This document shows, one piece after another, positions 7,847-51,747 of a stretch of 64,000 nt of DNA. The position numbers and the translations under genes were made by a program. The notes under the pieces were generated by a model. The model worked only from the letters and a program-made list of their open reading frames with translations. It did no database searches and was not told the origin of the DNA. Origin of the DNA: Gammaproteobacteria bacterium (GTDB lineage Bacteria; Pseudomonadota; Gammaproteobacteria; UBA4575); NCBI GenBank assembly GCA_965242685.1, contig OZ251487.1, positions 93,591 to 157,590 on the forward strand. Direction: 5' to 3'. Within the stretch, counting starts at the first letter, position 1; every line of letters begins with the position of its first letter.

Positions 7847-8800
7847 TTATACGGTTTGCCGATAAATGAAAAATAGGTAGGCAAAGTACGCTACAAAAAA
7901 TAAAGCCCCGAGGCCACGGGAGATACTTTTCGTTCGTGAAAAGGCCAGCGCGAACAGAAATAATGCCAGCGTTGCCGTGATCATAATGGGGAGGTCGCGT
8001 GTATAGACTTGTGCGGGGATCAGGTATGCCGCGATCACCCCCGCCGTACCGGTGACCCCGAGGGTGTTGAAGATATTTGAACCGATCACGTTTCCCAAGG
8101 CCAGCTCACCGTGTTTCTTCATGGCACTTGCAACGCACGTGGCCAGTTCCGGCAGGCTGGTGCCCAAGGCAACGATCGTCAAACCGATGATCAGGTCCTC
8201 GACGCCCAGATAGTTTGCCATCGAAACCGCCGACCATACCACCAGCTTGGAACTGAGCAATAAAACACCCAGACTGAACGACAAGCCCAACAACAGGACG
8301 GCAAGGCCTTTGTGCGCAGAATCGTCTGGTGCATGTTGTTCTCGTCCGCGCCCTTTCAATTCAAAGTGCGTCAGCAAGTACAGTGTAAATCCCAAGGCCA
8401 GTATCAGCATAACGCCGTCCGCCCGCTGCAAATTCCGGTCCAATATCAACAGGATGAATAATGTCGTCGCCGTGATCAGTAACAGAAAGTCCCTGTATAA
8501 AATATTTTTGCTTACATAGAGTGGCGTAATGCACAAGGTGGTACCCAGGATAAGCAAAATATTGGTGATGTTTGACCCCAGGGCGTTACCTATGGCCAGT
8601 CCCGGGTTCCCCTGCCAGGCGGACAATCCGGAAACCAGCAGCTCCGGGGCCGATGTGCCAAACCCGAGTATAACGAATCCGACCACGATCTTTGAAAGAC
8701 GCAAGTGCCGCCCCAGATGCAGGGCATGATCGGTAAACCTGTCGGCACTCCAAATCAAGAGCAAAAGCCCCGCGACAAAGGCAGAGGAAAATAAATACAT
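7847..8800 (-). CDS. yrbG: Na+/Ca2+ exchanger (CaCA) family inner-membrane protein, YrbG-like
   Basis: Two alpha-repeats (GNALGSNITNILLILG and GNVIGSNIFNTLGVTG). Start moved to the internal Met MYLFSSAFVAGLLLLIWSADRF (ATG at 8798-8800), which aligns with the YrbG N-terminus. The longer ORF-track start would overlap the subtilase gene. Confidence 0.65.
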   Translation of the reverse strand: MYLFSSAFVAGLLLLIWSADRFTDHALHLGRHLRLSKIVVGFVILGFGTSAPELLVSGLSAWQGNPGLAIGNALGSNITNILLILGTTLCITPLYVSKNILYRDFLLLITATTLFILLILDRNLQRADGVMLILALGFTLYLLTHFELKGRGREQHAPDDSAHKGLAVLLLGLSFSLGVLLLSSKLVVWSAVSMANYLGVEDLIIGLTIVALGTSLPELATCVASAMKKHGELALGNVIGSNIFNTLGVTGTAGVIAAYLIPAQVYTRDLPIMITATLALFLFALAFSRTKSISRGLGALFFVAYFAYLFFIYRQTV

Positions 8801-8994
8801 AAGTGAAATGCTTGGTTTATGCTTTGCTTGGTGTTCTACAGCCAATAGAATACACTTTAATACACTTTCCCCCGCAAACGTAAAGAAAAAAGCCAAATGC
8901 GGGCCACCTGCCAAATGCGGGTCACCTGCTAAATACAATGTTATGTGATCGATTCGGGGTAGTATTATCTCCGGTGATGTATAGAGGTACTTCA

Positions 8995-11235
8995 ATGAAA
9001 ACTCTGGCTATGGGAATGGTGGTGTTCACCGCCACAATATTGTTCAGTTGTGGCGGCGGGGGCGGCGGCGGGGGCGACGGGCCAAACCCTTGTACCGGCA
9101 TCAGGGTCTTCGACGGCTGCCTCTCGCGGCAGGAGTTTGCGGGACGCCAAGCCCCCATCGCCCGTGCGCGCCTTGCAGGCTCCGAGTTTCAGGCGCAATG
9201 GGGCCTGGAGACGATCAACGCACACCGGGCACATGCGGCCCTGGAAGCGAAATATGGCAGGCGGGTAAGGCCTGGGACAGGGGTTACCGTCGGCTTCCTG
9301 GATGATGGTATTGATCGTAATCACCCTGAATTCAGCGGCGTAGCGATCACCGAAACGATCATACAATCGGGAGGCAGTCGCTCACATGGTACTTCGGTTG
9401 CCAGCGTTATTGCCGCACAATCCAACGGCCGGGGCTTTGTCGGTGTCGCACCGGGGGCCGCCATCGAGATGGGGGCGATCAGCTTCGGGATTGCCCCCAC
9501 GTATTATACGCCGATTTCACTGACAAACCTTGCCGCCGCCGATGCAGGCTTTGAAAGAAACTTAAAGACTATGTTTGCTCGTGACGTTGATATTTTGAAT
9601 CTCAGCATTGGGTACTCGGGAATCATAGAGAATTATAGTGAGGGAGACCTTCGCACGTATTTTCCAAAAACGATTGCCGCCCAAGCACAGGCCGGTGCCG
9701 GAGAAAAACGCATCCTGGTCTGGGCTGCCGGTAATCATAATAATGCACTTTGCACGTCGGGCACACCTAATTGCAGCAGCGGCGGGTATATCACTGCAAG
9801 CTCGCCCTCTATAACCGCCGGGTTGGCCGCAAGAATTAGCGAATTGGCTTCGCACTCCATCGCCGTCGTAGCCTTAAATCAAGCCGGCACGATTGCCGGT
9901 TTCTCCAACCGTTGCGGGATTGCACAGAATATCTGCATTGCGGCCCCTGGCGTTGATATTGTGGCTGCCGAGGCCGGAAGTACCGGGTCTAGAACAGTAA
10001 ATGGCACGTCTTTTTCTGCCCCGATGGTAGCGGGCGGCCTAGCCTTGATGAAGCACTTTTTCCGTGGCCAACTCTCAAACACGGAACTGGTTACCCGGCT
10101 TTACGCAACCGCCAACAAAACCGGTATATACAGTAACCGAAGCATCTACGGGCAAGGGCTGATGGATCTCGGCGCCGCCGTCTCTCCCGTGGGCGGTACC
10201 TCGATCACCACGGGCACTCGAGTCGGGGACGCCGGCCACTTCACCCAAATTACCCACTTAACAACGGGGAGCGCCTTCGGCGACGGCCTGTCACGCGCCT
10301 TGGCCGACCGCGAAATTGTGGCGTTTGACTCGTTGGGAAGCCCGTTCTGGTTTGACCTCCCCGCCTTTACCCAAAATCGCACCCCTTCACTGATGAAGCG
10401 GCTCGATGACCTGATGACCCGTAATGAAGACCCGCAACCATGGGCTACACACGAGATACCGCCGGCAGCCGGGATCTATGGCGATCCCCGCAATCGGGGC
10501 ACATACAGGATCAGTCTTTACGAACGTCCGGTCGCGGCCGAAAGCAGCGCATTCAACCTTGCCGAGCAGGTTGTAGCATTTACCTCCAAGGTGCCAAGCG
10601 GCTTTGAAACTATGGTATTCACCACCGCCGGCCTCACTGGCAACAACAACCCCAAGACGGGCGCCATAGCGGCTTGGAGACCCTCGAACGTGCCGTTCGG
10701 AATTCGCCTCGGTTGGCTTGGAGAACGAGAGGCAGTACTGGATTCCATGGCTGACGGGGCATTCGGTCGGTTATCGGGCGACAGCTTCGTGACCGGCCTT
10801 GAAATGAATACCGAATTCAAGGGCTGGCGGCTGGCCGTCGACGCCGAGGTCGGCCTGGTCACATCGGATACATCAGGGGGCGTCATCGCCGACCTGTCGG
10901 ACATGGTGACCAGCGCGTTTTCACTGCGCGCCCATCGGCACTTGACGAGCAGGGACAGGCTCACGTTCTCGCTATCGCAACCGCTGCGGATAGAACGCGG
11001 CTCTGCCGAGCTTGTGTTGCCGGTCGGTCGCACCAAAGACGGCAAAGTACTGCATGAACAGGTCTCTGCACGCCTGACGCCATCCAGCAGACAGATCGAT
11101 CTATCCGTGCGTTGGCAACGGATGAAACTATTCAACGGCAGACTTCGCGCCGAGATCACCGCCTCGCGCAATCCGGGGCACATGGACAAGGGCACCGAGT
11201 TCAGCCTGCTGGCGGGTTGGGAAGCTGCCTTCTAA
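8995..11235 (+). CDS. S8 (subtilisin-like) serine protease lipoprotein with C-terminal autotransporter beta-barrel (NalP-like)
   Basis: Lipobox LFSC followed by a Gly8 linker. Catalytic motifs DDGID, HGTSVAS, GTSFSAPMVAG and AAGNHN. The C-terminal ~300 aa are beta-strand-rich and end in an aromatic residue (...LLAGWEAAF). Start taken at the ATG at 8995 (MKTLAMGMVVF). Confidence 0.8.
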   Translation: MKTLAMGMVVFTATILFSCGGGGGGGGDGPNPCTGIRVFDGCLSRQEFAGRQAPIARARLAGSEFQAQWGLETINAHRAHAALEAKYGRRVRPGTGVTVGFLDDGIDRNHPEFSGVAITETIIQSGGSRSHGTSVASVIAAQSNGRGFVGVAPGAAIEMGAISFGIAPTYYTPISLTNLAAADAGFERNLKTMFARDVDILNLSIGYSGIIENYSEGDLRTYFPKTIAAQAQAGAGEKRILVWAAGNHNNALCTSGTPNCSSGGYITASSPSITAGLAARISELASHSIAVVALNQAGTIAGFSNRCGIAQNICIAAPGVDIVAAEAGSTGSRTVNGTSFSAPMVAGGLALMKHFFRGQLSNTELVTRLYATANKTGIYSNRSIYGQGLMDLGAAVSPVGGTSITTGTRVGDAGHFTQITHLTTGSAFGDGLSRALADREIVAFDSLGSPFWFDLPAFTQNRTPSLMKRLDDLMTRNEDPQPWATHEIPPAAGIYGDPRNRGTYRISLYERPVAAESSAFNLAEQVVAFTSKVPSGFETMVFTTAGLTGNNNPKTGAIAAWRPSNVPFGIRLGWLGEREAVLDSMADGAFGRLSGDSFVTGLEMNTEFKGWRLAVDAEVGLVTSDTSGGVIADLSDMVTSAFSLRAHRHLTSRDRLTFSLSQPLRIERGSAELVLPVGRTKDGKVLHEQVSARLTPSSRQIDLSVRWQRMKLFNGRLRAEITASRNPGHMDKGTEFSLLAGWEAAF

Positions 11236-11449: not shown

Positions 11450-11845
11450 ATGGGCATTACAGAATTGATAGATAAATATGGCGAGGCGGGCGTAGTGTTT
11501 GGCTTTGTGCTGACTTGGATTATTTTCAGTTTCCAAATTAGAGGTATGAAAGGCCGAATTGATGGTATAGAAACCAACATCAATACCCGAATTGATGGTA
11601 TAGAAACCAATATCAATACCCGAATTGATGGTATGGAAACCAATATCAATACAAAGATGGAAGCCATCAACAAAAGCATTGAGAAACACGACACAGAGCA
11701 ACGGGAATTACGTGGTTTAGTGGTGGGCGTAATCCAAAGTATAGGCGACATCAAACAAAGCATAGGCGGGCTTGAAAAAATGATGGCAAGCCAACAACCC
11801 CAGACCGACAGCACACCGGCCGCCGCCACAGCACAGGGCAAATAA
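11450..11845 (+). CDS. small membrane-anchored coiled-coil protein with three 11-aa (33-bp) tandem repeats RIDGIETNINT
   Basis: 131 aa with an N-terminal TM helix (VVFGFVLTWIIFSF). The hendecad repeats are encoded at 11555-11653. Strand is chosen on plausibility; the antisense ORF 11326..11841 looks like a repeat artefact. Confidence 0.4.
   Translation: MGITELIDKYGEAGVVFGFVLTWIIFSFQIRGMKGRIDGIETNINTRIDGIETNINTRIDGMETNINTKMEAINKSIEKHDTEQRELRGLVVGVIQSIGDIKQSIGGLEKMMASQQPQTDSTPAAATAQGK
11555..11653 (+). repeat. 3 x 33-bp tandem repeat (cgaattgatggtatagaaaccaaYatcaataccc)
   Basis: Direct inspection; in-frame within the small CDS. Confidence 0.8.
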
Positions 11846-12101
11846 GTTCCGTTTCTCCCTTCTAATCCGTCCGGATAAATCAGAGCAATACTGAAAACCT
11901 TCGCCGCGGACCGGCCTCGCCCGAGCAGAATCGCGGATTGGTTTTTAGGCGTTCAATATCTGGCAAATTTCGGAGACAAATTTACCCTTTTAGAAATATA
12001 TCCTTCCCGCGAAACAGGGTTCTACCACCCGCAACGGCGGTTGATTTCCAGATCAGGGTAGAACGCGGGTCTGGTTTTTAGGCGTTCAATAGCTAGTGAT
12101 T
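11846..12101. repeat. module-flanking intergenic repeat block (family copy A)
   Basis: Contains tgatttccagatcagggtagaacgcgggtctggtttttaggcgttcaat units and the ggagacaaatttacccttttagaaatatatccttcccgcgaaacagggttctaccacccgcaacgg segment. Both recur at 16138-16497 and 19649-20031. Confidence 0.7.
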
Positions 12102-15100
12102 TCACCACCTGATCACGGCCTGTACGCCGATGCCGTGTTCGGTATCCTCGTCATCGTATTCGAGGCGTTCGCCTTCCAGTTTTAAGGTCAAGGCTTCGGT
12201 AAACTTGTACTCGCTCCCCAGTCGGTAGTGACGCCCTTCGTCCCGCACCCGCAGCCCCAGGTACGGCGTCAGCAGCCCCCGCCTGTGATACAACCCGTAC
12301 CCCAATTCGGTCTCCAACTGCAACGCGGTGTCGGCGGCCTCGTCCTCGTCCTTCAACGCCAGTCCCCGCTCCCACAGTGCGCCGATGCCGCCGCCGGTGG
12401 TGCCCCAACTCGGGATGACGCTAAATCGCAGCCCCCGCCCGTTGGCCGCCGGCAACCATTCCAAAGCCCCGCCAAGCCCCCATTCGTCCAAGTCCCCGCT
12501 ATGCGTCACCAGGTAGCGCCCGTGCGTGCGAAGGCGCAGCCCGCCGTTGCTATAACCAACATCCCCGCCGATCTCGACGCCACTGCCGGTCTCGCCGTCG
12601 CCGCCGTCATAGCGTACCCCCAGCTCCAGGCTCGAGGTCAGGATCGCGCCCGTCTCCAGCACCTGACGACGGCTGCCCTCGGCGGCCAGCCGCAGTCGGT
12701 GGGTGTCGATGGTTATGCCGTCTATACGGTCGCCGTTGTCGTCGATGCGCCACCGCGTGGTCTGTCCCTCGCCCCGAATGGCGATCTTCAGATCATCGCG
12801 TTCATAGACCCGCATACTGCCCCCCGCCGACAAGGTCTTGAGGGTGCTGTCGCTGCGTTGTTTCTCATCGAGATCCTCGTCGTCGATGGTGATCTCGCCC
12901 TCGCCGTAGCCCACCGTCGCCCACATCCGGCTGCCGTCTTCGCCGCTCCAGCCAAGGTACGGATGAATGCTCACCATCTCGCTCTCGTGATCGCCCTTGA
13001 TCGTCTCGCCTTCGCTACTATCTTTATAGTCGATGTCGCTCTCAAACCAGGATACGCTCACGCCGGCGGTCTTGTTTGTGCCCCATTCGGTATCGATCCC
13101 CAAGTGCCACGAGAAGGCATCGCCGTCCCAATCCAGCCAGCCGGTGTCTAACGCCAGATCGCGCCAGTCGCCCGCCCCCCACAAGGTCAGGTTGTTGCCG
13201 AAGGTATCGGCGCCGTTCAACGGCAGCGCAAAGTTTTGTCCGCTCAACGCCTGGCGCCATTTGAAGGTGCCGTCTTCCAATGATTGGGCGTTGCCTTGGA
13301 TTACATTCCCGAACGAGGAGGTCGGCGCCCGCGAACCGCCCCCCGCTCCTTCCAGTCGTTCGCGGATCGCCCGACCCACGCTGTCGGTCAACGCCCGCGC
13401 CAGCTCCGGTACGATCGATTCGTTGATGCGCCGCAGACGCGCCCGTTCCTTGTCCCGCGAGTTCTCGACGGTGATCGCAAACGTCATCATCGCCGTGCCG
13501 CCCACCACTTCCCAGGTGTAGTCGGTCGCCACTTGTTCTTCCGTCGGCGTGCCGCTGATGGTGCGCGTGCCCGCATTCAAACTCAGCCCCACCGGCAAGG
13601 CCGGGCTTAGGGTGTAGTCGACATCGCCGTCCACCAACTCCGGCAGGATCAACGCCGTGATCGGGGTGTTGACGGTATACACTTGATCGGGTATATCGAC
13701 ATAGCCCACCCCAAAGGCTGAAAACACACTCACGGTCGCGCATATCAAGTCGCTCCCGCCCGGATTGGTGCGCAAGGTCGTACCGCTCACGGCCTCCCAT
13801 TCGCCGCGCCCTTCGTCGTAGTGCAACAGCAACAGGGGACGCCCGGTCGCCGCCGTCTCCAGCTCGGCGCTATACGGCAGACAGATCTCTAGCCCGCCAC
13901 TCGGCACGGGGGCGACATCGATGTCGACCACGGTGCCATCGCCCAAGGTGTAGGTGCTGCCGGTCAACGGCACATTCGATGACACCCGACTCAGGGTGAT
14001 CGCCAAATCCTGGCCCAAGGCGGCCGGCGGCGCCACTTCCACCTCTTCGTCCACGCCCTCGGATACCGTCACGGTGACCGCCTGGCCGTTGATCTCGTAG
14101 TTGGTGGTGCCCGCTCTGTGCATGGCGATGCGCCGGTCGGCGCTGCCGCCTTGTACGGTGATGACCACGGCATCCGCCTGCGTGTCTTCGTAGCCGCTGC
14201 CGGTGCCGCTTACGGTGTGACCGATGGTCACGCCCCCCTTGGCGTAGTCGTCGTTGTCGGTCGCCACCGTCGCCGTCACCGTCACCGCGCCGTTCCAGTT
14301 GCCCGTCCCGAACGTGACGCTGCTTACATCGGGGGTGACGGCGGCATCGCCGCTCGTCAGGGTCAGCGTGACATTGGCCGCCGGCTCGGCGTCCAGCACC
14401 ACCGTATAGGTGCCGCTGCCCCCTTCGGCGATGGTCAGTTCGGTCGGCGTCACGGTCACGCCCTTGGTGTCGTCATCGACGGTGCGCACCGCCACGTCTC
14501 GTTGACTCAGCGCGGTGTAGACGCTGTCGCTGCCGGTCGGACTCGCCAACCGCACCGCATAGTCTTGATCGCCATCGTCCACAAAGTCGTCGACGCCGGT
14601 CAGCGTCACCGTCTGCGTACTGTTCCAGTTACTGGCCGTAAACGTCAGACTGGCCGGACTCACCGTCCCCTCGCTGGTGTCGGTGCTGCTCAACGCGATC
14701 ACCACGTTGGCGGTCGGCTCGCTGTCCAGCTCGACATCGAAGGTCGCGGTGCGGCTTGCGCCCGTCGCCTCGGTCACCGTCTCGCGCGGCGTACCCGCGC
14801 CCAAGTCGCTCAGCGTAATGCCGGCCGTGTCATCGTCGGTGGTGGTGACCCCCACGTCAACGTTGGCCAGACCGTTGTAGTTGGCGTCCGCGGTGCTCGC
14901 CGGATCAAGGGTGATGTCGTAGTTCTGATCGCCATCGTCAATGCTATCGTTCGCCCCGGTCACCGTCACCGTCTGATCGCTGTTCCAGTTAGAGGGCGTG
15001 AACGTCATACTGCTCGGACTGACCGTACCTTCGCCAGTGTCGGTGCTGCTGACCGCCACCGTTACGTTGGCCGTCGGCTGGGTGTTGAGTTTGACGGTGA

Positions 15101-15722
15101 ACGTCGAGGTGACCCCCGCCTCGGTCGCCTGGCCGGTGACCGCGCCGACGCCGAGGGTAGGCGACTCGTCGTCCAGGATCGTCAGCGTGGCGGTCGTGAC
15201 GGCGGTATGACCTTTTTCCCAATAAAAAGATGTATCACCTGCATCGTCACCAGGAAACTCCGCCGACACCGTCACCGTCCGGGTGCCGTCCACGTTTCCG
15301 TTGTCGGGAATCATGAGCGTCACCACCCCGTTCTCGGGCCGCGTAAGAGTGATTGTACCGGCGTTAGGTCTGTTATACCTCAGCCGCACATTGGTGCTCA
15401 GCGAGGCGCCGCCGGCGTTGGTGGGAGTCGATACGACAATATCAAAATATGCAAGGGCATTTAGGTGCGATGCTTTCGGATTGTATTGGCAATTGTGAAT
15501 CGTCCCGGTGCAAAGGATGTTAACGGGGACGGTCGCCGCCTGGCCCTCGGTGACGGTAAGCGAACTGGCGCGTTCCGCGCCCAACTCTATCCTGAAACTA
15601 TGGTGCTGGCCGGAGCCGGCATGCGCCCCCGCCGTACCCGCCGTCAGCAGTAGCGGTGCGGCCACAGAAACGCCGGCCAAAAGTCGGCGTACAAGGCGAT
15701 TGCGGAAAAGGCCAAGCACCAT
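12102..15722 (-). CDS. giant surface protein: signal peptide, tandem ~100-aa beta-sandwich (Calx-beta/cadherin-like) repeats, C-terminal autotransporter-type beta-barrel
   Basis: 1206 aa. Signal peptide LLAGVSVAAPLLLTAGTAGAHA. Repeated TANVTV..SSTDT.EGTVSP.S.TFT.SNWN..QTVTVTG.DD..DDGDQ.Y units. C-terminus ...GIGVQAVIRW. Paralogous to 16498..19164 and 20032..22353. Confidence 0.8.
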   Translation of the reverse strand: MVLGLFRNRLVRRLLAGVSVAAPLLLTAGTAGAHAGSGQHHSFRIELGAERASSLTVTEGQAATVPVNILCTGTIHNCQYNPKASHLNALAYFDIVVSTPTNAGGASLSTNVRLRYNRPNAGTITLTRPENGVVTLMIPDNGNVDGTRTVTVSAEFPGDDAGDTSFYWEKGHTAVTTATLTILDDESPTLGVGAVTGQATEAGVTSTFTVKLNTQPTANVTVAVSSTDTGEGTVSPSSMTFTPSNWNSDQTVTVTGANDSIDDGDQNYDITLDPASTADANYNGLANVDVGVTTTDDDTAGITLSDLGAGTPRETVTEATGASRTATFDVELDSEPTANVVIALSSTDTSEGTVSPASLTFTASNWNSTQTVTLTGVDDFVDDGDQDYAVRLASPTGSDSVYTALSQRDVAVRTVDDDTKGVTVTPTELTIAEGGSGTYTVVLDAEPAANVTLTLTSGDAAVTPDVSSVTFGTGNWNGAVTVTATVATDNDDYAKGGVTIGHTVSGTGSGYEDTQADAVVITVQGGSADRRIAMHRAGTTNYEINGQAVTVTVSEGVDEEVEVAPPAALGQDLAITLSRVSSNVPLTGSTYTLGDGTVVDIDVAPVPSGGLEICLPYSAELETAATGRPLLLLHYDEGRGEWEAVSGTTLRTNPGGSDLICATVSVFSAFGVGYVDIPDQVYTVNTPITALILPELVDGDVDYTLSPALPVGLSLNAGTRTISGTPTEEQVATDYTWEVVGGTAMMTFAITVENSRDKERARLRRINESIVPELARALTDSVGRAIRERLEGAGGGSRAPTSSFGNVIQGNAQSLEDGTFKWRQALSGQNFALPLNGADTFGNNLTLWGAGDWRDLALDTGWLDWDGDAFSWHLGIDTEWGTNKTAGVSVSWFESDIDYKDSSEGETIKGDHESEMVSIHPYLGWSGEDGSRMWATVGYGEGEITIDDEDLDEKQRSDSTLKTLSAGGSMRVYERDDLKIAIRGEGQTTRWRIDDNGDRIDGITIDTHRLRLAAEGSRRQVLETGAILTSSLELGVRYDGGDGETGSGVEIGGDVGYSNGGLRLRTHGRYLVTHSGDLDEWGLGGALEWLPAANGRGLRFSVIPSWGTTGGGIGALWERGLALKDEDEAADTALQLETELGYGLYHRRGLLTPYLGLRVRDEGRHYRLGSEYKFTEALTLKLEGERLEYDDEDTEHGIGVQAVIRW

Positions 15723-15741: not shown

Positions 15742-15755
15742 GGGGGGGGGGGGGG
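15742..15755. repeat. homopolymeric G14 tract (C14 on the coding strand), 19 nt upstream of the giant-protein start
   Basis: Counted directly. Conserved flanks aaatcgc-Gn-atattg are shared with the tracts at 19230 and 22419. Confidence 0.9.
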
Positions 15756-15780: not shown

Positions 15781-16137
15781 TCAGAAAAACAGGAGTTTGC
15801 CCACTATTAGCAGGGTAAGGCCCAAGTTCAACCCGATTGCCCATTGAAGCCAGGTCTGACCGATTTGGAGTTTGTCAATATCTGCCTTAAGCTCTTGTTT
15901 CAGTGCTTTATTATCTGCCTTAAGCTCTTGTCTCAGTGCTTTATTATCCGCCTTAAGCTCTTGTCTCAGTGCTTTATTATCCGCCTTAAGCTCTTGTCTC
16001 AGTGCTTCAAGATCTGTCTTGGTGGCTACTTCCGCGTCGGGGTGTTTGAACGTATCCACAATCACCCGCGCCTGCGCCTCCGGCATGTCGGCGGCGGTCA
16101 ATTTCCTGATGGCCTCGGCGGTGTCTATTGCATACAT
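15781..16137 (-). CDS. DUF1640-like tail-anchored coiled-coil protein (paralog A; 4 copies of the 33-bp repeat)
   Basis: 118 aa. Conserved N-domain MYAIDTAEAIRKLTAADMPEAQARVIVDTFKHPDAEVATKTD, then LRQELKADNKA hendecad repeats and a C-terminal TM helix (WAIGLNLGLTLLIVGKLLFF). Family assignment is from memory. Confidence 0.55.
   Translation of the reverse strand: MYAIDTAEAIRKLTAADMPEAQARVIVDTFKHPDAEVATKTDLEALRQELKADNKALRQELKADNKALRQELKADNKALKQELKADIDKLQIGQTWLQWAIGLNLGLTLLIVGKLLFF
15883..16014. repeat. 4 x 33-bp tandem repeat (gccttaagctcttgtYtcagtgctttattatcY)
   Basis: Direct inspection; encodes KALRQELKADN on the minus strand. Confidence 0.85.
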
Positions 16138-16497
16138 GGCTTTATCCTAAACGCCCACATCATAGCGAAGTTCAAGCGTCATTGGAATAAGCCACTATAT
16201 CCTAGATTATTCCCAAAGATAAATAGAGTGCCTAGTTGATCTCGACAGGGCGGTTTCTAGGCTTTCAATATCTGGTGATTTTCGATTTTCGGCGGTTAAA
16301 AATACCGCCTACAAGGGAGATAAAATCACCCTTTTAGGAATATATCCTTCCCGGAAATAGGGTTCTACCACCCGCAACGGCTGGTGGTTTTTTGATCAGA
16401 GTAGAATTGTAGATTGGTTATCTAGGCGTGCTATATACTGTTGATTCCAGATCAGAAGGCCGTAGATCGGTTTTTAGGCGTTCGATGGCGGGTGATT
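16138..16497. repeat. module-flanking intergenic repeat block (family copy B), including a hairpin + T6 terminator-like element
   Basis: accacc-N10-ggtggt followed by tttttt, and ccagatcag...gatcggtttttagg units. Homologous to blocks A and C. Confidence 0.65.
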
Positions 16498-19164
16498 TCA
16501 CCACCTATACTCGACGGTTACGCCGATGCCGTGTTCGGTGTCGGCACGGTCTTGCTCCAGACGTTCGCATTCGGTGTTCAGCGTCAGGGTTTCACGTAAC
16601 TTGAAACGTCCGCCCAACCGATAGTGACGCCCTTCGTCCCGCACGCTCATCCCCAAGTACGGCGTCAGCAGTCCGCCGATATGATGCCGTCCGTAGCCGA
16701 TCTCGCCGTCCAGCTTTAGACTGCTGTCCGGGTCTTCTTCGTCTTCCTCGTATAATGCCGCCCCCGCCTTCCACAACCGCTGTAGACCGCTCTCGGCGGT
16801 CCCCCAGGTCGGCGTCAGGGTGATGTGTAGACCTCGCCCATCGGTCATCGCCCTGTATACCAGCGATACGTTCGCGCCCCATTCATCGTAATCCGAATTC
16901 GCCACCAGCGTCCGCGCGCCCGCCGTCAGACCCAACCGGCCCGACCCGTAGTCTACGCCCACGCCCACTTCCGCACCACTGCCGGTGTCGCCATCGCCGC
17001 CGTCATAACGCACGCCCAGTTCAAATCTTGGCAATAACCGCGCGCCCGATGCCAGGATTTTCTCCTGCCTTGCCTCTACCGCCACCCGCAAGCGTGTTGC
17101 GTCCGACTTCTGTCGTTGAATGCCATCGCCGTTGTCGTCCACTTCGAAATCCGCATACATCGCCTCGCCCCGCAGCGAGACCTCGGTGCCATTGGCCGCG
17201 TACAACGGCCCCCGCGCCCCGGCCGAGGCCATTCGCATGTCGGCGTCCGACTTCTGACGCTGCCCGCCGGCGACGATCTCTAAATCGCCACTGCCAACGC
17301 CCGCCATCGCCCATAGGCTGATGCCGCCCGGCGTGATCCATCCCAAATAGGGTTGCGCACTGGTCATCTCCAGCTCCCACTTGCCCTTTTGACCCTGGTG
17401 TCCGTAATCTAATTTCGCCTCCGACCAGGTGGCCGCCAGCCCCACACGCAGACCGTTTGCCAGCAATCGATCCGCCCCCAGGTGGGCGCTGGTCACGTCG
17501 CCGTCCCACTTCACGCCGCGCGCCTCGCCATCGAGATCGCGGTAGTCGCCGCCGCCCCACAAGACGATGTCGCCACCGCCGCCCGCGTCATTCCCGTCCA
17601 GCGACAAGGCAAACGCCGCCTGCGGCAGCAGGTGTCGTTTCCAGTCTAATTCCCCGTCTTCCTGCATAGCCGACCCGTGTCGCATCAGCCGTTCCAAGTT
17701 TACGTTTTCCGTCAGCGAGGGTGATGGTGATGTCGGTGCCCCGCCCAAATCCGCCCGCTCGAGACGTTGACGCACCGCCGTCGCGCGGCTGTCCGCCATC
17801 GCCCGCGCCACTTCCGGCAGCAGTACTTCCGTCACCTCATCCCCCGCGCCGTCGTTGTCGGTGTTGGTTACCAACACCGTCACATCCGCCAGCGCGGCAT
17901 AGCGGGCATCGGAACTGCTCGGGTCCAGTCGCACCGCACAGGTCGCGCCGACATCGCTCACCATGTCGTCCACGCCCCGCACCGTCACGGTCTGCGGGGT
18001 GTTCCATAACCTTACCTGTGCGTCCGGGTCTTCGTCTGCGGCACTGAGCACGAACGTCAACGTCCCGCTCTCGCCGGCGGCAATGTAGGTCATGCCGCCG
18101 TCCACCGACACTTCGCACTCGTCGCCGTCTTGGCTTGAAACATCCACCGCCGAATCCACCTGCGGGATGGTCGACAGCCGCACCGTGAACGTGTCCGTGC
18201 CGCCATCCTCCGTGACTACGGTCGAACCGCCGCTCTCAACCACCGTCAGCCCCACTTCGTCGTCTTCGGTCATCACCTCGACGGTCTCCGTCGCCAGAGT
18301 GTTGTAATTGGTATCGCCGCTACTGCTCGGATCCAGCTCGATGTTGTAGCTCTGCGTGCCGTCTTGAATGGTGTCGTCGACGCCGGTCACGGTGACCGTC
18401 TGGGTGCTGTTCCAGTTGCTGTTCGTGAACGTCAGACTGGTCGGACTCGGCGTGCCCTCGCCGGGGTCGGCACTGCTCACCGCCACCGTTACGTTGGCGG
18501 TCGGCTGCGACGCCAGCCTGACGGTGAAGGTCGCCGTCTGCGCGGTGTTGCCTTCATTTGCCGTGCCGGTCACGGCACTCGTCCTGATCCCCGGCGTGTC
18601 TTCGTCCAGAATCGTCAGTGTGGCGGACTGGATAAAGACTTCTGGTACGTCGGAAATCTCCACAAAGTAATTCTGATCCGTACCATAAGTCCTAGGCGCC
18701 CCCGCTATGTTCACCGTCCGGTCTCCGTCCATAGCCGTATTGCCGGCAATCGTGAGCGTTACCGTCCCCGAAGTGTTCGAGCCTAAGGTATTCGAGCCTG
18801 CATTTATGGTAAACCCTAAGTGCTGACCCGTCTGCGTGATGCCGCCGGCGCCGCTGGGAGTCGGAGTCCCTGCGGTGATGGTAATACCGTTTCTGTTGTT
18901 TCGATTCTGGTCGGGATATCCATTCTGTTGGCAAGAAGCAGTTCCACCACCATGTGAGGTGCAGCGGACGGTGACGGCGACGGTCGCCGCCTGGCCCTCC
19001 GTGACGGTCAACGTGCTTGCCCCGTTCAACAACACCTCGAAGTGCAAATGACGGTTCGTCCCTATGTTATGCGCCCCCGCCGTACCCGCCGCAAGCAACA
19101 GCGACACAGATAGCAACGCCGCCGAAAGGCGGTGTGCAAGGCTATGGCGAAGTCCACGCATCAT
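16498..19164 (-). CDS. giant surface protein, paralog 2 (signal peptide, beta-sandwich repeats, C-terminal beta-barrel)
   Basis: The ORF-track start at 19305 reads through the poly-G tract (PPPPP). Start moved to MMRGLRHSLAHRLSAALLSVSLLLAAGTAGA (ATG at 19162-19164), matching paralog 3. C-terminus ...GIGVTVEYRW. Confidence 0.8.
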   Translation of the reverse strand: MMRGLRHSLAHRLSAALLSVSLLLAAGTAGAHNIGTNRHLHFEVLLNGASTLTVTEGQAATVAVTVRCTSHGGGTASCQQNGYPDQNRNNRNGITITAGTPTPSGAGGITQTGQHLGFTINAGSNTLGSNTSGTVTLTIAGNTAMDGDRTVNIAGAPRTYGTDQNYFVEISDVPEVFIQSATLTILDEDTPGIRTSAVTGTANEGNTAQTATFTVRLASQPTANVTVAVSSADPGEGTPSPTSLTFTNSNWNSTQTVTVTGVDDTIQDGTQSYNIELDPSSSGDTNYNTLATETVEVMTEDDEVGLTVVESGGSTVVTEDGGTDTFTVRLSTIPQVDSAVDVSSQDGDECEVSVDGGMTYIAAGESGTLTFVLSAADEDPDAQVRLWNTPQTVTVRGVDDMVSDVGATCAVRLDPSSSDARYAALADVTVLVTNTDNDGAGDEVTEVLLPEVARAMADSRATAVRQRLERADLGGAPTSPSPSLTENVNLERLMRHGSAMQEDGELDWKRHLLPQAAFALSLDGNDAGGGGDIVLWGGGDYRDLDGEARGVKWDGDVTSAHLGADRLLANGLRVGLAATWSEAKLDYGHQGQKGKWELEMTSAQPYLGWITPGGISLWAMAGVGSGDLEIVAGGQRQKSDADMRMASAGARGPLYAANGTEVSLRGEAMYADFEVDDNGDGIQRQKSDATRLRVAVEARQEKILASGARLLPRFELGVRYDGGDGDTGSGAEVGVGVDYGSGRLGLTAGARTLVANSDYDEWGANVSLVYRAMTDGRGLHITLTPTWGTAESGLQRLWKAGAALYEEDEEDPDSSLKLDGEIGYGRHHIGGLLTPYLGMSVRDEGRHYRLGGRFKLRETLTLNTECERLEQDRADTEHGIGVTVEYRW

Positions 19165-19229
19165 TAGTAATTTGCGGTGGCCGCCGAACCTCCTACGGTC
19201 TGCGCGGGATGTGGTAATTACAAATCGCG

Positions 19230-19244
19230 GGGGGGGGGGGGGGG
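19230..19244. repeat. homopolymeric G15 tract, 65 nt upstream of the paralog-2 start codon
   Basis: Counted directly; same conserved flanks as tract 1. Confidence 0.9.
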
Positions 19245-19333
19245 CAATATGTCGTTTCATCGGAGGCTGCTCCACGTGAGTTTGTCCTGTAATTCCCGCG
19301 TACAATAATACGTATAGTTATATCGGCGTTCAA

Positions 19334-19648
19334 TCAAAAAAATACGAGTTTGAGCACGATTAGCAGAGTAAAGCTTAAATTCGCCCCGATTGCCCATTTG
19401 ATCCATTTTAACTCTGTTCTAAACTCTGCTCTAAGCTCTCCAATATCCGCCTTAAACTCTTGTCTCAGTGCTTTATTATCTGCCTTAAGCTCTTGTTTCA
19501 GCCCGTTGATACTTGTCTCAAGATCTGTCTTGGTGGCTACTTCCGCGTCGGGGTGTTTGAACGTATCCACAATCACGCGCGCCTGCGCCTCCGGCATGTC
19601 GGCGGCGGTCAATTTCCTGATGGCCTCGGCGGTGTCTATTGCATACAT
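19334..19648 (-). CDS. DUF1640-like tail-anchored coiled-coil protein (paralog B; about 2 repeat copies)
   Basis: 104 aa; same N-domain and C-terminal TM helix as paralog A. 33-bp repeats at 19449-19514. Confidence 0.55.
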   Translation of the reverse strand: MYAIDTAEAIRKLTAADMPEAQARVIVDTFKHPDAEVATKTDLETSINGLKQELKADNKALRQEFKADIGELRAEFRTELKWIKWAIGANLSFTLLIVLKLVFF

Positions 19649-20031
19649 AACTTTATCCTAAACGCCCAACATTCTAGCGAAGTTCGGGCGTCATTGGAAT
19701 AAGCCACTATATCCTAGCTATTCCCAAAGATAAATAGAGTGTCTAGTTGATCTCGACAGGTCAGTTTTTAGGCTTTCAATGGCTGTTGATTTCCAGATTA
19801 GAGTAAAACCGCGGATCGGTTTTTAGGCGTTTAATATCTGGTAATTTTCGGAGACAAAATCCCCCTTTTAGAAATATATCCTTCCCGCGAAACAGGGTTC
19901 TACCACCCGCAACGGCTGGTGATTTCCAGATCAGGGTAGAACGCGGGTCTGGTTTTTAGGCGTTCGATGGCTGCTAATTTCAGATCAGAAGGCCGTAGAT
20001 CGGTTATCTAGGCGTGCTATATCTGTTGATT
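19649..20031. repeat. module-flanking intergenic repeat block (family copy C)
   Basis: Two tgatttccagatYagRgtaRaaccgcggRtcKgtttttaggcgttYaat units plus the conserved ggagacaaaatcccccttttagaaatat... segment. Confidence 0.7.
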
Positions 20032-22353
20032 TCACCACCTGTATTCAACCGTTACGCCGATGCCGTGTTCGGTGTCGGCACGGTCTTGCTCCAGGCGTTC
20101 GCATTCGGTGTTCAGCGTCAGGGTTTCACGTAACTTGAAACGTCCGCCCAACCGATAGTGTCGCCCTTCGTCCCGCACGCTCATCCCCAAATACGGCGTC
20201 AGTAGTCCGCCGACATGATGCCGTCCGTAGCCGATCTCGCCATCCAGCTTTAGACTGCTGTCCGGGTCTTCTTCGTCTTCCTCGTATAAGGCGGTCCCCG
20301 CCTTCCACAACCGTTGCAGGCCGCTCTCGGCGGTCCCCCAGGTCGGCGTCAGGGTGATGTGCAGACCCCGTCCGTCGGTCATCGCCCGATAGACCAGCGA
20401 TACGTTGGCGCCCCATTCATCGTAATCGGAATTCGCCACCAGCGTCCGCGCACCCGCCGTCAGACCCAATCGGCCCGACCCGTAGTCTACGCCCACGCCT
20501 ACTTCCGCACCGCTACCGGTCTCGCCATCGCCGCCGTCATAACGCATGCCCAACTCAAATCTCGGTAATAACCGCGCCCCCGATGCCAGGATTTTCTCCT
20601 GCCTTGCCTCTACCGCCACCCGCAAGCGCGTGGCGTCCGATTTCTGTCGTTGAATGCTATCGCCGTTGTCGTCCACTTCGAAATCCGCATACATCGCCTC
20701 GCCGCGTAGCGATACTTCTGTTCCATTGGCCGCATACAACGGCCCGCGCGCACCGGCCGAGGCCATCCGCATGTCGGCGTCCGATTTCTGACGCTGCCCG
20801 CCGGTGACCACCTCTAGATCGCCGCTACCGACGCCCGCCATCGCCCATAGGGAAATACCGCCCGGCGAGGTCCATCCCAAATAGGGTTGCGCACTGGTCA
20901 TCTCCAGCTCCCACTTGCCCTTTTGACCTTGGTGTCCGTAGTCGAGTTTGGCCTCCGACCACGTCGCCGCCAGGCCTACGCGCAGACCGTTTGGCAACAG
21001 CCGATCCGCCCCCAGGTGGGCGCTGGTCACGTCGCCGTCCCACTTCACGCCGCGCGCCTCGCCATCGAGATCGCGGTAGTCGCCGCCGCCCCATAAGACG
21101 ATGTCGCTACCCATGCCCTCGTCATCGTCCAGCGACAGCGCAAACGCCGCCTGCGGCAGCAGGTGTCGTTTCCAGTCTAATTCCTCGTCCTCTTGCATAG
21201 CCGACCCGTGTCGCATCAGCCGTTCCAAGTTTAAGTTTTCCGTCAGCGAGGGTGATGGTGATGTCGGTGCCCCGCCCAAATCCGCCCGCTCGAGACGTTG
21301 ACGCACCGCCGTCGCGCGGCTGTCCGCCATCGCCCGCGCCACTTCCGGCAGCAGTACTTCCGTCACTTCTCCCGTGCCGTCGTTGTCCGTGTTGGTGACC
21401 AACACTGTGGTGCGCGCTATCGCCATCGCGTATTGGGCATCGGAACTGCTCGGGTCCAGTCGCACCGCACAGGTCGCGCCGACATCGCTCACCATGTCGT
21501 CCACGCCCCGCACCGTCACGGTCTGCGGGGTGTTCCACAAACTCGTCTGTGCGCTGAGCAGGTCGCTCGGGTCGGAGCCATCGGGCAGGAACGTCAACGG
21601 CCCGCCAACACCGGCGGCGAGATACGTCATGCCGCCATCCAGCGACACTTCGCACTCGTCGCCGTCTTGGCTTGAAACATCCACCGCCACCGCCGCCTGC
21701 GGGTTGGTCGGCAGCCGCACCGTGAACGTGTCCGTGCCGCCATCCTCCGTGACTACGGTCGAACCGCCGCTCTCGGTTACCGTCAGCCGCGTGTCATCGT
21801 CCAGGATCGTCAACGTGGCGGACGCTACGATCGGTGCGATGTCATATCTACTTTGGAACCAAGATCCGTATGCCTGGCCCGGCAGCTGCGTCGCGTAATA
21901 CCCCTCCGCGTTCACCGTCACGGTCCGACGTCCGTCCATAGCCGGATTGCCGTCAATCGTGAGCGTTGCCCCGGTATTGGTCGTGCCGAGGTTTATATTG
22001 GTGGTAGGTAGGGTATTATACCGCGCCTGCGGATTGGCGTTCAGCGTGACGCCGCCGCCACTGGCGGGGGCCGTGGCACTGACGGTGAAGTAGGCGCTGT
22101 TGCGCCGAGGCAGCTCGGAGAAACCGGTGATACTGGTGCAGTGGGCCGTGCAACGGACTCTGGCGGTGACGGTCGCCGCCTGGTCCTCCGTGACGGTCAA
22201 CGTGCTCGCCCCGTTCAACTCCACCTGAAAGTGCGCATGGATGGTACTACCCCTACCATCCGCCCCCGCCGTACCCGCCGCAAGCAGTAGCGACACAAAC
22301 AGCAACGCCGCCGAAAGGCGGTGTGCAAGGCTATGGCGAAGTCCACGCATCAT
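20032..22353 (-). CDS. giant surface protein, paralog 3 (signal peptide, beta-sandwich repeats, C-terminal beta-barrel)
   Basis: 773 aa. The C-terminal ~450 aa are nearly identical to paralog 2 (same ...LLPEVARAMADSRATAVRQRLERADLGGAPTSPSPSLTEN... through GIGVTVEYRW). Confidence 0.8.
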   Translation of the reverse strand: MMRGLRHSLAHRLSAALLFVSLLLAAGTAGADGRGSTIHAHFQVELNGASTLTVTEDQAATVTARVRCTAHCTSITGFSELPRRNSAYFTVSATAPASGGGVTLNANPQARYNTLPTTNINLGTTNTGATLTIDGNPAMDGRRTVTVNAEGYYATQLPGQAYGSWFQSRYDIAPIVASATLTILDDDTRLTVTESGGSTVVTEDGGTDTFTVRLPTNPQAAVAVDVSSQDGDECEVSLDGGMTYLAAGVGGPLTFLPDGSDPSDLLSAQTSLWNTPQTVTVRGVDDMVSDVGATCAVRLDPSSSDAQYAMAIARTTVLVTNTDNDGTGEVTEVLLPEVARAMADSRATAVRQRLERADLGGAPTSPSPSLTENLNLERLMRHGSAMQEDEELDWKRHLLPQAAFALSLDDDEGMGSDIVLWGGGDYRDLDGEARGVKWDGDVTSAHLGADRLLPNGLRVGLAATWSEAKLDYGHQGQKGKWELEMTSAQPYLGWTSPGGISLWAMAGVGSGDLEVVTGGQRQKSDADMRMASAGARGPLYAANGTEVSLRGEAMYADFEVDDNGDSIQRQKSDATRLRVAVEARQEKILASGARLLPRFELGMRYDGGDGETGSGAEVGVGVDYGSGRLGLTAGARTLVANSDYDEWGANVSLVYRAMTDGRGLHITLTPTWGTAESGLQRLWKAGTALYEEDEEDPDSSLKLDGEIGYGRHHVGGLLTPYLGMSVRDEGRHYRLGGRFKLRETLTLNTECERLEQDRADTEHGIGVTVEYRW

Positions 22354-22418
22354 TAGTAATTTGCGGTGGCCGCCGAACCTCCTACGGTCTGCGCGGGATG
22401 TGGTAATTACAAAATCGC

Positions 22419-22435
22419 GGGGGGGGGGGGGGGGG
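22419..22435. repeat. homopolymeric G17 tract, 65 nt upstream of the paralog-3 start codon
   Basis: Counted directly; same flanks (aaaatcgc-G17-caatatgtcg). Confidence 0.9.
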
Positions 22436-22527
22436 CAATATGTCGTTTCATCGGCGGCTGCTCCACGTGAGTTTGTCCTGTAATTCTCGCATACAATAAT
22501 ACACTAGTTATAATATCAGCGGTTCAA

Positions 22528-22797
22528 TCAAAAAAATACGAGTTTGAGCACGATTAGCAGAGTAAAGCTTAAATTCGCCCCGATTGCCCATTTGATCCAT
22601 TTTAACTCTGTTCTAAACTCTGCTCTAAGCTCTCCAATATCCGCCTTAAACTCTTGTCTCAGCCCTTCAATATCTGTCTTGGTGGCTACTTCCGCGTCGG
22701 GATGTTTGATCGTATCCACGATTACGCGCGCCTGCGCCTCCGGCATGTCGGCGGCGGTTAGCTTCCTGATGGTGTCGGCGGTGTCTATTGCATACAT
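22528..22797 (-). CDS. DUF1640-like tail-anchored coiled-coil protein (paralog C; about 1 repeat copy)
   Basis: 89 aa, MYAIDTADTIRKL...; C-terminal TM helix. Confidence 0.5.
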   Translation of the reverse strand: MYAIDTADTIRKLTAADMPEAQARVIVDTIKHPDAEVATKTDIEGLRQEFKADIGELRAEFRTELKWIKWAIGANLSFTLLIVLKLVFF

Positions 22798-22798
22798 G

Positions 22799-23200
22799 TT
22801 AGAAAAACAGGAGTTTGCCCACTATTAGCAGGGTAAGGCCCAAGTTCAACCCGATTGCCCATTGAAGCCAGGTCTGACCGATTTGGAGTTTGTCAATATC
22901 TGCCTTAAGCTCTTGTCTCAGTGCTTTATTATCTGCCTTAAGCTCTTGTCTCAGCGCTTTATTATCCGCCTTAAGCTCTTGTCTCAGCTCTTTGATATCT
23001 GCCTTAAGCTCTTGTCTCAGTGCTTTATTATCCGCCTTAAGCTCTTGTTTCAGTCCGTTGATACTTGTCTCAATATCTGTCTTGGTGGCTACTTCCGCGT
23101 CGGGGTGTTTGAACGTATCCACAATCACCCGCGCCTGCGCCTCCGGCATATCGGCGGCGGTCAATTTCCTGATGGCTTCGGCGGTGTCTATTGCATACAT
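22799..23200 (-). CDS. DUF1640-like tail-anchored coiled-coil protein (paralog D; about 5 repeat copies)
   Basis: 133 aa. 33-bp repeats at 22902-23066 encode five ELKAD units. Confidence 0.55.
   Translation of the reverse strand: MYAIDTAEAIRKLTAADMPEAQARVIVDTFKHPDAEVATKTDIETSINGLKQELKADNKALRQELKADIKELRQELKADNKALRQELKADNKALRQELKADIDKLQIGQTWLQWAIGLNLGLTLLIVGKLLFF
22902..23066. repeat. about 5 x 33-bp tandem repeat
   Basis: Direct inspection. Confidence 0.85.
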
Positions 23201-43617: not shown

Positions 43618-44047
43618 CCGGGAGTTGGCCAGGCAGTCGCTTCCCCGCTTGTGGGCACACGGGACGGGGAAGAGGAAAGTCCGGGCTTTTTGGGCGAGGC
43701 GCCAGGTAATGCCTGGAGGACGTGAGTTCATGGAAAGTGCAACAGAAAGTAAACCGCCCGACCACCCGGTACAACAGTCAGCCTCGTTTTTTGTAAAATC
43801 ACGTAAGGCTGATTGAAGGGACGGTCGGGTAAGGGTGAAATGGTGTGGTAAGAGCACACCGCTCAACCGGTAACGGTTGTGGCTAGGTAAACCCCGCCTA
43901 AAGCAAGACCAAATAGGGGAGTACGGAACTATGTTCCGGCACATGGCCCGTGTGGGCTCCCGGGTAGGTCGCTTGAGGTTTGTGGTGACACAAATCCCAG
44001 ATGAATGACTGCCCCCGACAGAACCCGGCTTATCGGCCGACTCCCGG
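43618..44047 (+). ncRNA. rnpB: RNase P RNA, bacterial type A
   Basis: Conserved blocks GGAAAGTCCGGGCT, AGGGTGAAATGGTGTGGTAAGAGCACACC, CCAAATAGGGGAGTACGG and ACAGAACCCGGCTTATCGGCC. Terminal P1 pairing ccgggagttggcc/ggccgactcccgg. Confidence 0.85.
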
Positions 44048-44314
44048 CCTATATGAATGCTGACTGTCCCCCTTAGTTATCCATCAACCTGACCGAAATC
44101 CATCAGCCTGACCCAAAGGACAAGGTCAAGGCACACTTGATTAATAAAACAAGTAAATAGCGCGATATTTTTAATGTAAAAAATAATATTATTTATTTAA
44201 CTATATAAATAGAAAAAGATATTATTTGTTTTTACATGGCCTCAGATATGGAATATCAAGGCCATGATCCTTCCGAAATCCTACATATTTTCTGGTTTTT
44301 CCCTTGAATTTTGC

Positions 44315-47793: not shown

Positions 47794-47796
47794 CTC

Positions 47797-51741: not shown

Positions 51742-51747
51742 AGGCTT

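Follow-up and report, generated by a model that had tools for sequence, protein, structure and literature searches.

Pathogens and commensals of vertebrates classically rely on contingency loci and on recombining families of surface proteins. The Opa proteins of Neisseria are encoded by multiple complete, independently phase-variable genes, in which a conserved framework carries hypervariable middles and which recombine with one another. In pilE/pilS of Neisseria, in vlsE of Borrelia and in msp2 of Anaplasma, one expression site receives sequence unidirectionally from many promoterless, truncated donors. Some members of the Pmp family of Chlamydia are switched by frameshifts in poly-G tracts. 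Here we analysed a cluster of three autotransporter paralogs, named P1, P2 and P3, all on the minus strand of a 64,000-nucleotide (nt) stretch of DNA from a Gammaproteobacteria bacterium of the GTDB lineage UBA4575 (contig OZ251487.1, positions 93,591 to 157,590). This whole stretch is referred to as the window, and coordinates are those of the window unless another contig is named.

The bab genes of Helicobacter pylori consist of an N-terminal homology, a middle variable and a C-terminal homology region (> 90% identity); a repeat at the 5' end sets the reading frame, and conversion proceeds through the conserved ends (PMC4552749). Gene conversion among babA, babB and babC produces chimeras and moves the switch from one paralog to another (PMC4552749; PMC3444412). 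The Chlamydia Pmp proteins are a large, partly tandem family of autotransporter adhesins, with pmpG expanded, in a small-genome, host-associated bacterium (PMC5025070, PMC8326573), and their passengers are beta-helical and carry the repeats GGA(I,L,V)/FxxN (PMC11166332). Our analysis indicates, with a probability of about 0.6 for the explanation as a whole, that P1 to P3 belong to a family of complete paralogs that are independently switchable and occasionally recombine.

Conserved ends and divergent middles of P2 and P3

P2 and P3 share highly similar ends around a middle that can barely be aligned. The three genes and the parts of P2, with the P3 coordinates against which they were compared, are the following:

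12102..15722, minus strand: P1, open reading frame (ORF) of 1206 amino acids (aa), exact protein present in the public collection; in order, signal peptide, N-domain, three Calx-beta-like modules, He_PIG Ig-like domain (Pfam), linker and beta-barrel ending in AVIRW
16498..19260, minus strand: P2, 920 aa from the upstream ATG at 19260, or 888 aa from the ATG at 19164
16501..17484, minus strand: P2 beta-barrel (P3 barrel, 20035-21018)
17485..17844, minus strand: P2 alpha-helical linker region (P3, 21019-21375)
17845..18231, minus strand: P2 beta-sandwich module 'D' (P3, 21376-21768)
18232..18573, minus strand: P2 Calx-beta-like module 'C', 114 aa (no P3 counterpart)
18574..18996, minus strand: P2 variable N-terminal passenger domain, or N-domain (P3, 21769-22185)
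18997..19164, minus strand: P2 Sec-type signal peptide (MMRGLRHSLAHRLSAALLSVSLLLAAGTAGA) and first 25 passenger residues (P3, 22186-22353), sequence read directly
20032..22353, minus strand: P3, 773 aa, with signal peptide, N-domain, D module, linker and barrel; exact match in the public collection

A first-pass annotation of the window had described the outer parts of P2 and P3 as almost identical. Over the same ranges, alignment gave 92.7% identity at the 3' end (16498-17830 against 20032-21365; 1239 of 1337 columns, 91 mismatches, 7 gaps) and 93.6% in the signal-peptide and upstream regions (19080-19250 against 22270-22440). Both ends, read on the minus strand, are thus highly similar, and 'almost identical' overstates the case. 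Divergence along the genes is not uniform. In a global alignment of the two units, identity per 100 columns was 81-100% in the 5' part (~19650-18957) and 73-99% in the 3' part (18260-16470), and the middle (18957-18260 against 22146-21797) was barely alignable; sliding-window identities likewise gave conserved ends and an unlike middle. By region, DNA identity was 93.9% in the leader, 85.7% in the signal peptide with the first 25 passenger residues, 51.8% in the N-domain (~36% at the aa level), 83.3% in the D module (79% aa identity across this 129-aa module), 94.4% in the linker and 92.0% in the barrel (97% aa identity).

The conserved 3' end includes the barrel and linker, as had been described, and reaches further: the entire block (18262-16470 against 21799-20004; 90.0% identity, 181 differences in 1802 columns) takes in the whole D module, which is common to both passengers. 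The conserved 5' block continues upstream across a small ORF to ~19650. The passengers between them do differ in sequence and in module content, as previously noted, whereas the reported difference in length (ORFs of 935 and 773 aa) is in part an effect of ORF listing. Of the 162 aa, 47 correspond to an upstream extension that in P2 stays open across a poly-C tract, whereas in P3 it is out of frame, and the true passenger difference is ~115 aa. The P2 ORF as listed spans 16498-19305; the public gene call starts at the ATG at 19260, and the exact 920-aa sequence is present in the public collection. The 'divergent middle' consists of two parts, a fast-evolving N-domain and one additional 114-aa Calx-beta-like module in P2. 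This C module is closest to the first P1 module (62.5% aa identity) and then to a module of P0002 (56%), a fourth paralog described below. P1 is much more diverged, in agreement with the first-pass annotation, with 54.6% DNA and 45% aa identity across linker and barrel (its barrel is 45% aa identical to that of P2).

A direct-repeat analysis showed that the repeated unit is not the gene alone; it comprises a small upstream ORF, a homopolymer, the autotransporter gene and a repeat-rich spacer, the units being offset by ~3190 nt when compared at the 5' end and by ~3531-3537 nt when compared at the 3' end. P2 and P3 probably arose by tandem duplication of a ~3.5-kb unit made up of a small coiled-coil ORF, the poly-C tract, the autotransporter and the spacer. 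The spacers that follow the paralog stop codons (11900-12101, 16240-16497 and 19700-20031) are filled with imperfect repeats of ~45 nt (CTGGAAATCA[AC]CAG...CGCCTA[AG]A[AT]AACCGATC), which recur in an 841-nt contig of another sample (L026, 600-841). They had no match in Rfam or among tRNAs, and may be elements resembling repetitive extragenic palindromic sequences, or binding sites.

All copies are complete type Va (classical) autotransporter genes. The Pfam autotransporter beta-domain (PF03797, cutoff 26 bits) was recognised in P2 (40.7 bits) and P3 (42.5 bits), and no Pfam autotransporter beta-domain match at E < 0.01 was obtained for P1. The signal peptides, read directly from the sequence, have a basic n-region, a hydrophobic core and AGA or AHA motifs. 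An AlphaFold2 model of P3, computed from a 15-member family alignment with a mean predicted local distance difference test score (pLDDT) of 59, contained two all-beta passenger domains, then a long helix (residues 327-358) corresponding to the alpha-helical linker, and then the barrel. A Foldseek search with this model retrieved the tandem Calx-beta domains of NCX1 for the passenger, and the barrels of BrkA (template modelling score 0.63), EstA, EspP, Hbp and AIDA-I. A beta-helical passenger is typical of type Va autotransporters without being obligatory; here the passengers are predicted, at that mean pLDDT, to consist of NCX1 Calx-beta-like beta-sandwich modules and not of a beta-helix. Passengers of this kind suggest adhesin-like surface proteins. 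The N-domain is very rare in public data, with only 8 proteins at E < 1e-3 among 1.84 billion representatives. A sequence search of the P2 passenger against the PDB returned nothing meaningful, and no NCBIfam family matched the paralogs. The paralogs are modular: the leader and the Sec signal peptide are followed by an N-terminal domain, a beta-sandwich that evolves fast, then by Calx-beta-like modules variable in number and order, an alpha-helical linker and a beta-barrel.

Selection and probable exchange among the paralogs

Codon windows were used to compare synonymous (dS) and nonsynonymous (dN) divergence between P2 and P3. In the barrel, dS ranged from 0.12 to 0.63 (average ~0.3) with a dN of ~0.01 and a dN/dS of ~0.04; dS was 0-0.16 in the linker and 0.17-0.41 in the D module, and in the N-domain it reached 0.43-1.03, with dN about equal to dS (about 0.3-1.1). 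Because a dS of ~0.3 goes together with a dN of ~0.01, the likeness of the barrels comes mainly from purifying selection and not from fresh homogenisation.

Differences between P2 and P3 are nevertheless not evenly spread. Three perfectly identical tracts lie in the 3' block, of 132 nt in the linker region (17704-17835), 103 nt in the D module (17904-18006) and 92 nt mostly in the linker region (17468-17559). In a permutation test their length was significant over all sites (p < 1e-4) and also at third codon positions (p = 0.002, 0.011 and 0.003, respectively), and binned third-position differences were heterogeneous (chi-square 46.4, 18 degrees of freedom, p = 2.6e-4). The 5' block contains two further perfect tracts, one of 140 nt (19329-19468), made up for the most part of intergenic sequence and the last portion of the small ORF, and one of 113 nt (19112-19224) running from the leader into the signal peptide. 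This clustering into long perfect tracts is the signature of short-tract conversion on an older background. No segment with recent P2-P3 transfer was found in the variable N-domain (dS about 0.4-1.0).

A fourth paralog, P0002, is encoded on the same 1,831,068-nt contig as P1 to P3, outside the window; it is a complete protein of 889 aa and was compared at the protein level. Which copies are closest depends on the module. The barrels of P2 and P0002 are 100% identical over 328 aa, compared with 97% for P2 and P3. In the D module, P2 is closer to P3 (79% aa identity) than to P0002 (61%), and in the N-domain it is P3 and P0002 that are closest (55%, against ~36-38% for P2 with either). The module order also differs, C then D in P2 and D then C in P0002. 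Were P0002 and P3 of the same age, some 10 replacements should have accumulated in the P0002 barrel, and 0 were observed (Poisson p ~5e-5). The modules do not all fit one tree, and on an evolutionary timescale an exchange among the paralogs by recombination or conversion, with non-adjacent copies taking part, is therefore well supported. The clustered tracts, discordant closest pairs and differing module order, obtained by statistical and comparative analysis, are those of paralog exchange in Opa- and Bab-type families. A P3-type patch in P0002 (DDDEGMGSD) was also considered as proof of mosaicism and was dropped, as among three sequences it may reflect a P2-specific change.

Plain divergence after tandem duplication, with the ends conserved by purifying selection alone and no exchange, would account for the barrel dN/dS of ~0.04 with its substantial dS. 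It would also suit the 841-nt contig from another sample, a barrel fragment about equidistant from P2 and P3 (93.8% and 94.3% identity) in which a runs test for mosaicism was non-significant. We nevertheless regard it as unlikely, given the strong clustering of synonymous and third-position differences, the perfect identity of the 140- and 113-nt stretches, which were called non-coding in this argument, and the complete aa identity of the P2 and P0002 barrels beside D modules only 61% identical and an unlike module order.

Another explanation is a dedicated segmental gene-conversion system of the pilE/pilS, vlsE, msp2 or tprK type, in which the central cassettes would be exchanged frequently between P2 and P3 by way of the conserved ends. 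The ~93% identical 5' and 3' blocks around a divergent middle, the perfect tracts long enough for homologous recombination and the mosaic module relationships within the family are all compatible with it. However, a search of the 64-kb window with the locus (tblastn and blastn) recovered only the three full-length copies and no silent or partial cassettes. P1 to P3 each have their own leader, tract, signal peptide and barrel, and P0002 is a complete protein, so that there is no asymmetry between an expression site and silent donors. Moreover, with a flank dS of ~0.3 the ends are not constantly homogenised, the P2 and P3 N-domains (36% aa identity) contain no recently exchanged segment, and three or four donors would provide a tiny repertoire. 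Such a system is therefore doubtful. The earlier proposal of conserved ends flanking a variable cassette as a substrate for gene conversion and antigenic variation is accordingly retained for the conserved flanks and for exchange among paralogs, to which the clustered 132-, 103- and 92-nt tracts, the uneven third-position differences and the change of closest pair from module to module point. The analysis does not support near-identical ends, constant homogenisation of the flanks, an arrangement of expression site and silent cassettes or recent transfer of the N-domain, and programmed high-frequency antigenic variation by segmental conversion could only be inferred.

In the explanation that we prefer, that of complete, switchable and occasionally recombining paralogs, the ends stay alike chiefly because the parts that serve secretion and translocation are under purifying selection. 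To this would be added, now and then, recombination or short-tract gene conversion between paralogs, non-adjacent ones included, as indicated by the tract statistics and the discordant modules. The middle would differ through gain or loss of a module and through old, rapid divergence of the N-domain.

Poly-C tracts in the leaders

The first-pass annotation dealt with the conserved ends and did not mention the poly-C tracts, which are the more obvious device for variation. The tracts and the accompanying promoter match are located as follows:

15742..15755, minus strand: P1 poly-C tract, C14, followed after 19 nt by the P1 ATG
19229..19244, minus strand: P2 poly-C tract, C16, 64 nt upstream of the ATG at 19164 and 16 nt downstream of the ATG at 19260
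19305..19333, minus strand: sigma-70-like promoter match TTGAAC-17-TATTAT upstream of the ATG at 19260, a consensus match only
22419..22435, minus strand: P3 poly-C tract, C17; one additional T at 22411-22414; upstream ATG at 22449-22451

These are the only G or C runs of at least 8 in the 64 kb, namely G14, G16 and G17 on the plus strand, hence C14, C16 and C17 on the coding strand. A phase-variable locus carries a hypermutable repeat, such as a homopolymer of at least ~9 G or C, at a place where a change in its length alters expression, and all three tracts are candidates of this kind by length and position. Their length varies between the paralogs (14, 16 and 17) and among related loci (G10-G13). 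Each tract sits between the signal-peptide ATG and an upstream ATG, which precedes the tract by 10-16 nt and whose frame runs through it; the spacing from tract to signal-peptide ATG is 64-65 nt in P2 and P3. According to a frame analysis of P1 to P3, the upstream ATG is joined to the main ORF in one of the three possible frames. P2 (C16) is fused in frame with the ATG at 19260. P1 (C14), with an upstream ATG 10 or 16 nt before the tract, is out of frame and would require C13 or C16 for fusion, and P3 (C17 and the extra T) is also out of frame and would require C15 or C18. In the assembled state, P2 is thus in frame, and would be ON if the ATG at 19260 is the start, and P1 and P3 are out of frame relative to their upstream ATG. 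Translation from the upstream ATG would give the N-terminal peptide MKRHIAPPPPPRF...

When the leaders were read directly, no obvious Shine-Dalgarno sequence was seen at the internal ATG of P2 or P3, and the upstream ATGs have GGAG (P2, P3) or AGGA (P1) nearby. The promoter hexamers of P3 are the same as those of P2 (TTGAAC, TATTAT) with a 20-nt spacer. The tract may act by frameshifting the true start, via a leader ORF, or on transcription. The leader RNAs of P1 to P3 and of two relatives folded no better than shuffled sequences (z from -1.4 to +1.1), and a structured riboregulator is therefore not supported. A position of the tract within the promoter spacer was also considered and appeared less likely, as sigma-70-like boxes lie upstream of it (TTGAAC-17-TATTAT in P2, TATAAT ~130-150 nt upstream in relatives).

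The exact sequences of P1, P2 and P3 were found on a single contig of 1,831,068 nt in NCBI/ENA, corresponding to a genome of ~1.83 Mb. The only family-level relatives were on contigs of long-read, sponge-associated metagenome assemblies assigned to Candidatus Porisulfidus, including the 1.877-Mb chromosome OZ251520.1. Porisulfidus is listed among the known sponge-symbiont Gammaproteobacteria (PMC12988363). The GC content is 53% in the window and 72-75% in the Porisulfidus-type relatives, and the genome of the window therefore represents a different lineage of the Porisulfidus group. Five distinct related loci on Porisulfidus-type contigs (L001 and L003 to L006) were examined. In all five a tract of G10-G13 precedes the annotated ATG by 63-69 nt, the sequence around it being conserved and near to AATAC-Gn-CTAAAAGCC, and in all five an upstream ATG 38-64 nt before the tract reads through it. 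The tract is thus a conserved attribute of this autotransporter family, as is its spacing to the signal-peptide ATG. A scan of genome contigs for other strains yielded only one Porisulfidus representative (73-75% GC), and a scan of metagenome contigs yielded 19 distant barrels (30-45% identity), none of which had a homopolymer of at least 9. Up to now, therefore, family members with a tract come only from the genome of the window and from Porisulfidus-type contigs. P1 to P3 with P0002 constitute a lineage-specific family of classical autotransporters.

The related loci also bear on whether assembly could have created the pattern through mis-joined or collapsed repeats, which would affect both the mosaic relationships and the tract lengths. 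The genome is a metagenome-assembled genome (MAG), the related records are long-read metagenome contigs, and the short-read assembly of another sample breaks at this family, leaving the 841-nt contig. An artefact is nevertheless very improbable: the copies are 7-10% apart even in their conserved parts and have distinct passengers, which makes collapse of repeats unlikely, all ORFs are intact, and the same architecture, tract included, is present at five independent loci on other contigs.

In four of the related loci (L001, L003, L004 and L006), the three leader frames lead respectively to fusion with the main ORF, to a TAA directly after the tract (in a conserved CTAAAAG) and to a TGA that shares bases with the start codon of the main ORF (ATGA). 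L005 lacks the early TAA, and there the frame in question stops 206 nt past the main ATG. These frames leave room for a more speculative explanation, to which we attach a low probability, in which the homopolymer would be a conserved three-state leader switch (fusion, TAA stop, or termination and reinitiation at ATGA), possibly combined with recombination promoted by the G runs. Tract length would then set graded and not binary expression, and the runs of 14-17 G on the non-coding strand might promote recombination between paralogs. A G-quadruplex-forming sequence near pilE promotes recombination. If true, this would mean combinatorial surface variation in a reduced-genome sponge symbiont, directed against phagocytosis by the host or against phage.

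We favour the simpler family of independently switched, occasionally recombining paralogs. As every gene can be expressed on its own and carries a separate, presumably hypermutable poly-C tract, day-to-day variation of the surface would most likely come from independent ON/OFF switching of the genes by slipped-strand mispairing, both the switching and the phenotype being putative. On a longer timescale, new combinations of passengers, barrels and switch regions would arise through recombination at the conserved ends. Several points weigh against this explanation. A canonical signal peptide begins at the internal ATG, and the role of the tract is putative. Six of the eight loci (three here and five related) would be 'off' under the frame model, as frames taken by chance would give. 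The promoter is a consensus match only, and the consensus of a long-read MAG may misstate the length of a tract by one base. Concerning exchange, the flank dS is ~0.3, so that any conversion would have been infrequent or short; the runs test on the 841-nt contig gave p = 0.09, and this contig may itself be a short-read chimera; the identity of the P0002 and P2 barrels holds at the protein level only; and patterns of shared sites among three sequences do not alone prove recombination. Finally, the structural model of P3 is of low confidence, as its mean pLDDT indicates.

Genomic surroundings and comparison with described systems

Small coiled-coil proteins with a C-terminal transmembrane segment, weakly similar to CCDC90 or DUF1640, are encoded between the paralogs:

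15781..16137, minus strand: 118 aa, C-terminal transmembrane segment, weakly CCDC90-like, 3.9 copies of a 33-nt repeat
19334..19648, minus strand: 104 aa; its 3' end and stop lie inside the 140-nt tract 19329-19468, identical to 22523-22662
22528..22797, minus strand: 89 aa, first of two tandem ORFs upstream of P3
22799..23200, minus strand: 133 aa, second of these ORFs

The 33-nt repeats (LRQELKADNKA) are variable in number, with 3.9 copies in the ORF upstream of P1 and 4.8 in the P3-distal ORF at 22799-23200 (Tandem Repeats Finder). The four ORFs are mosaics of two types, the one upstream of P1 resembling the P3-distal ORF and the one upstream of P2 resembling the P3-proximal ORF at its 3' end. 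Homologs with 35-38% identity adjoin autotransporter paralogs in Porisulfidus contigs (L001, 23885-24157; L003, 7272-8168; L004, 7258-7818).

Directly downstream of P1 lies an ORF of 131 aa (11450-11845, plus strand) that has a hydrophobic segment at its N terminus and, at 11554-11652, three 33-nt repeats in exact phase (RIDGIETNINT). A subtilase of 765 aa (Peptidase_S8; 8938-11235, plus strand) is convergent with the paralog cluster; Pfam detected the S8 domain alone, and the C-terminal end of the protein (...LLAGWEAAF) resembles that of an outer-membrane barrel. It could be an autotransporter protease of the NalP/SphB1 kind that processes surface proteins. A membrane protein of the Na/Ca exchanger family (7847-8995, minus strand; Pfam Na_Ca_ex, E = 1.5e-63) is encoded two genes from the Calx-beta-like autotransporters, and its proximity to Calx-beta-like passengers is probably a coincidence.

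The other neighbours are ordinary chromosomal genes. Pfam identified mlaC upstream of the paralog cluster, and the ORFs adjoining the cluster are, judging from their translations, presumably murA and hisG. RNase P class A RNA (43621-44048, plus strand; 324.6 bits) was the only RNA element in the window at Rfam gathering thresholds, and no tRNA genes were found in it. The layout of a same-strand run of ORFs (46072-62972, plus strand) suggests a dcw cluster for cell division and peptidoglycan synthesis. RNase P, mlaC and the dcw-like run place the paralogs in an ordinary chromosomal setting.

In full-text literature searches on Porisulfidus and on phase variation or homopolymeric tracts in sponge symbionts, no account of such a system came up. 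If the tracts do switch, a symbiont genome of ~1.8 Mb devotes several kilobases to stochastic variation of Calx-beta-type, adhesin-like proteins, which would point to fluctuating selection on the cell surface, arising from host recognition or from phage.

Because each gene is complete, with its own leader and poly-C tract, the locus resembles Opa, Bab and Pmp and not the pilE/pilS cassette system. With pilE/pilS it has in common the conserved flanks around variable segments, but every copy here is complete and self-sufficient, and the window contains no silent cassettes. The Opa genes are likewise complete, individually switchable, recombining paralogs with variable middles. Opa proteins, however, are small 8-stranded barrels, their switch is a CTCTT pentamer in the leader-peptide coding sequence, and it is their surface loops that vary, whereas whole passenger modules vary here. 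The Pmp passengers are beta-helical and those described here are Calx-beta-type beta-sandwich modules; in sequence the two families are unrelated apart from the barrel fold. The likeness to the Bab system is almost point for point in architecture, with complete genes at several loci, conserved ends around a variable middle and a frame-setting repeat at the 5' end. Bab proteins nevertheless are porin-like outer-membrane proteins of the Hop family and the paralogs here type Va autotransporters; the Bab repeat is a CT dinucleotide within the signal-peptide coding region, compared with a C14-C17 homopolymer that here lies in the leader, ahead of the signal peptide; the three copies here stand in tandem and those of Bab are dispersed; and conversion has been documented experimentally for Bab and is only inferred here. 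The differences from the known systems thus lie in the class of protein, in the type and position of the repeat, in the tandem arrangement and in the host biology of a sponge symbiont. With these differences, the P1-P3 locus is best placed among the known families of independently switchable, occasionally recombining surface-protein paralogs, and is not regarded as a system of programmed cassette conversion.

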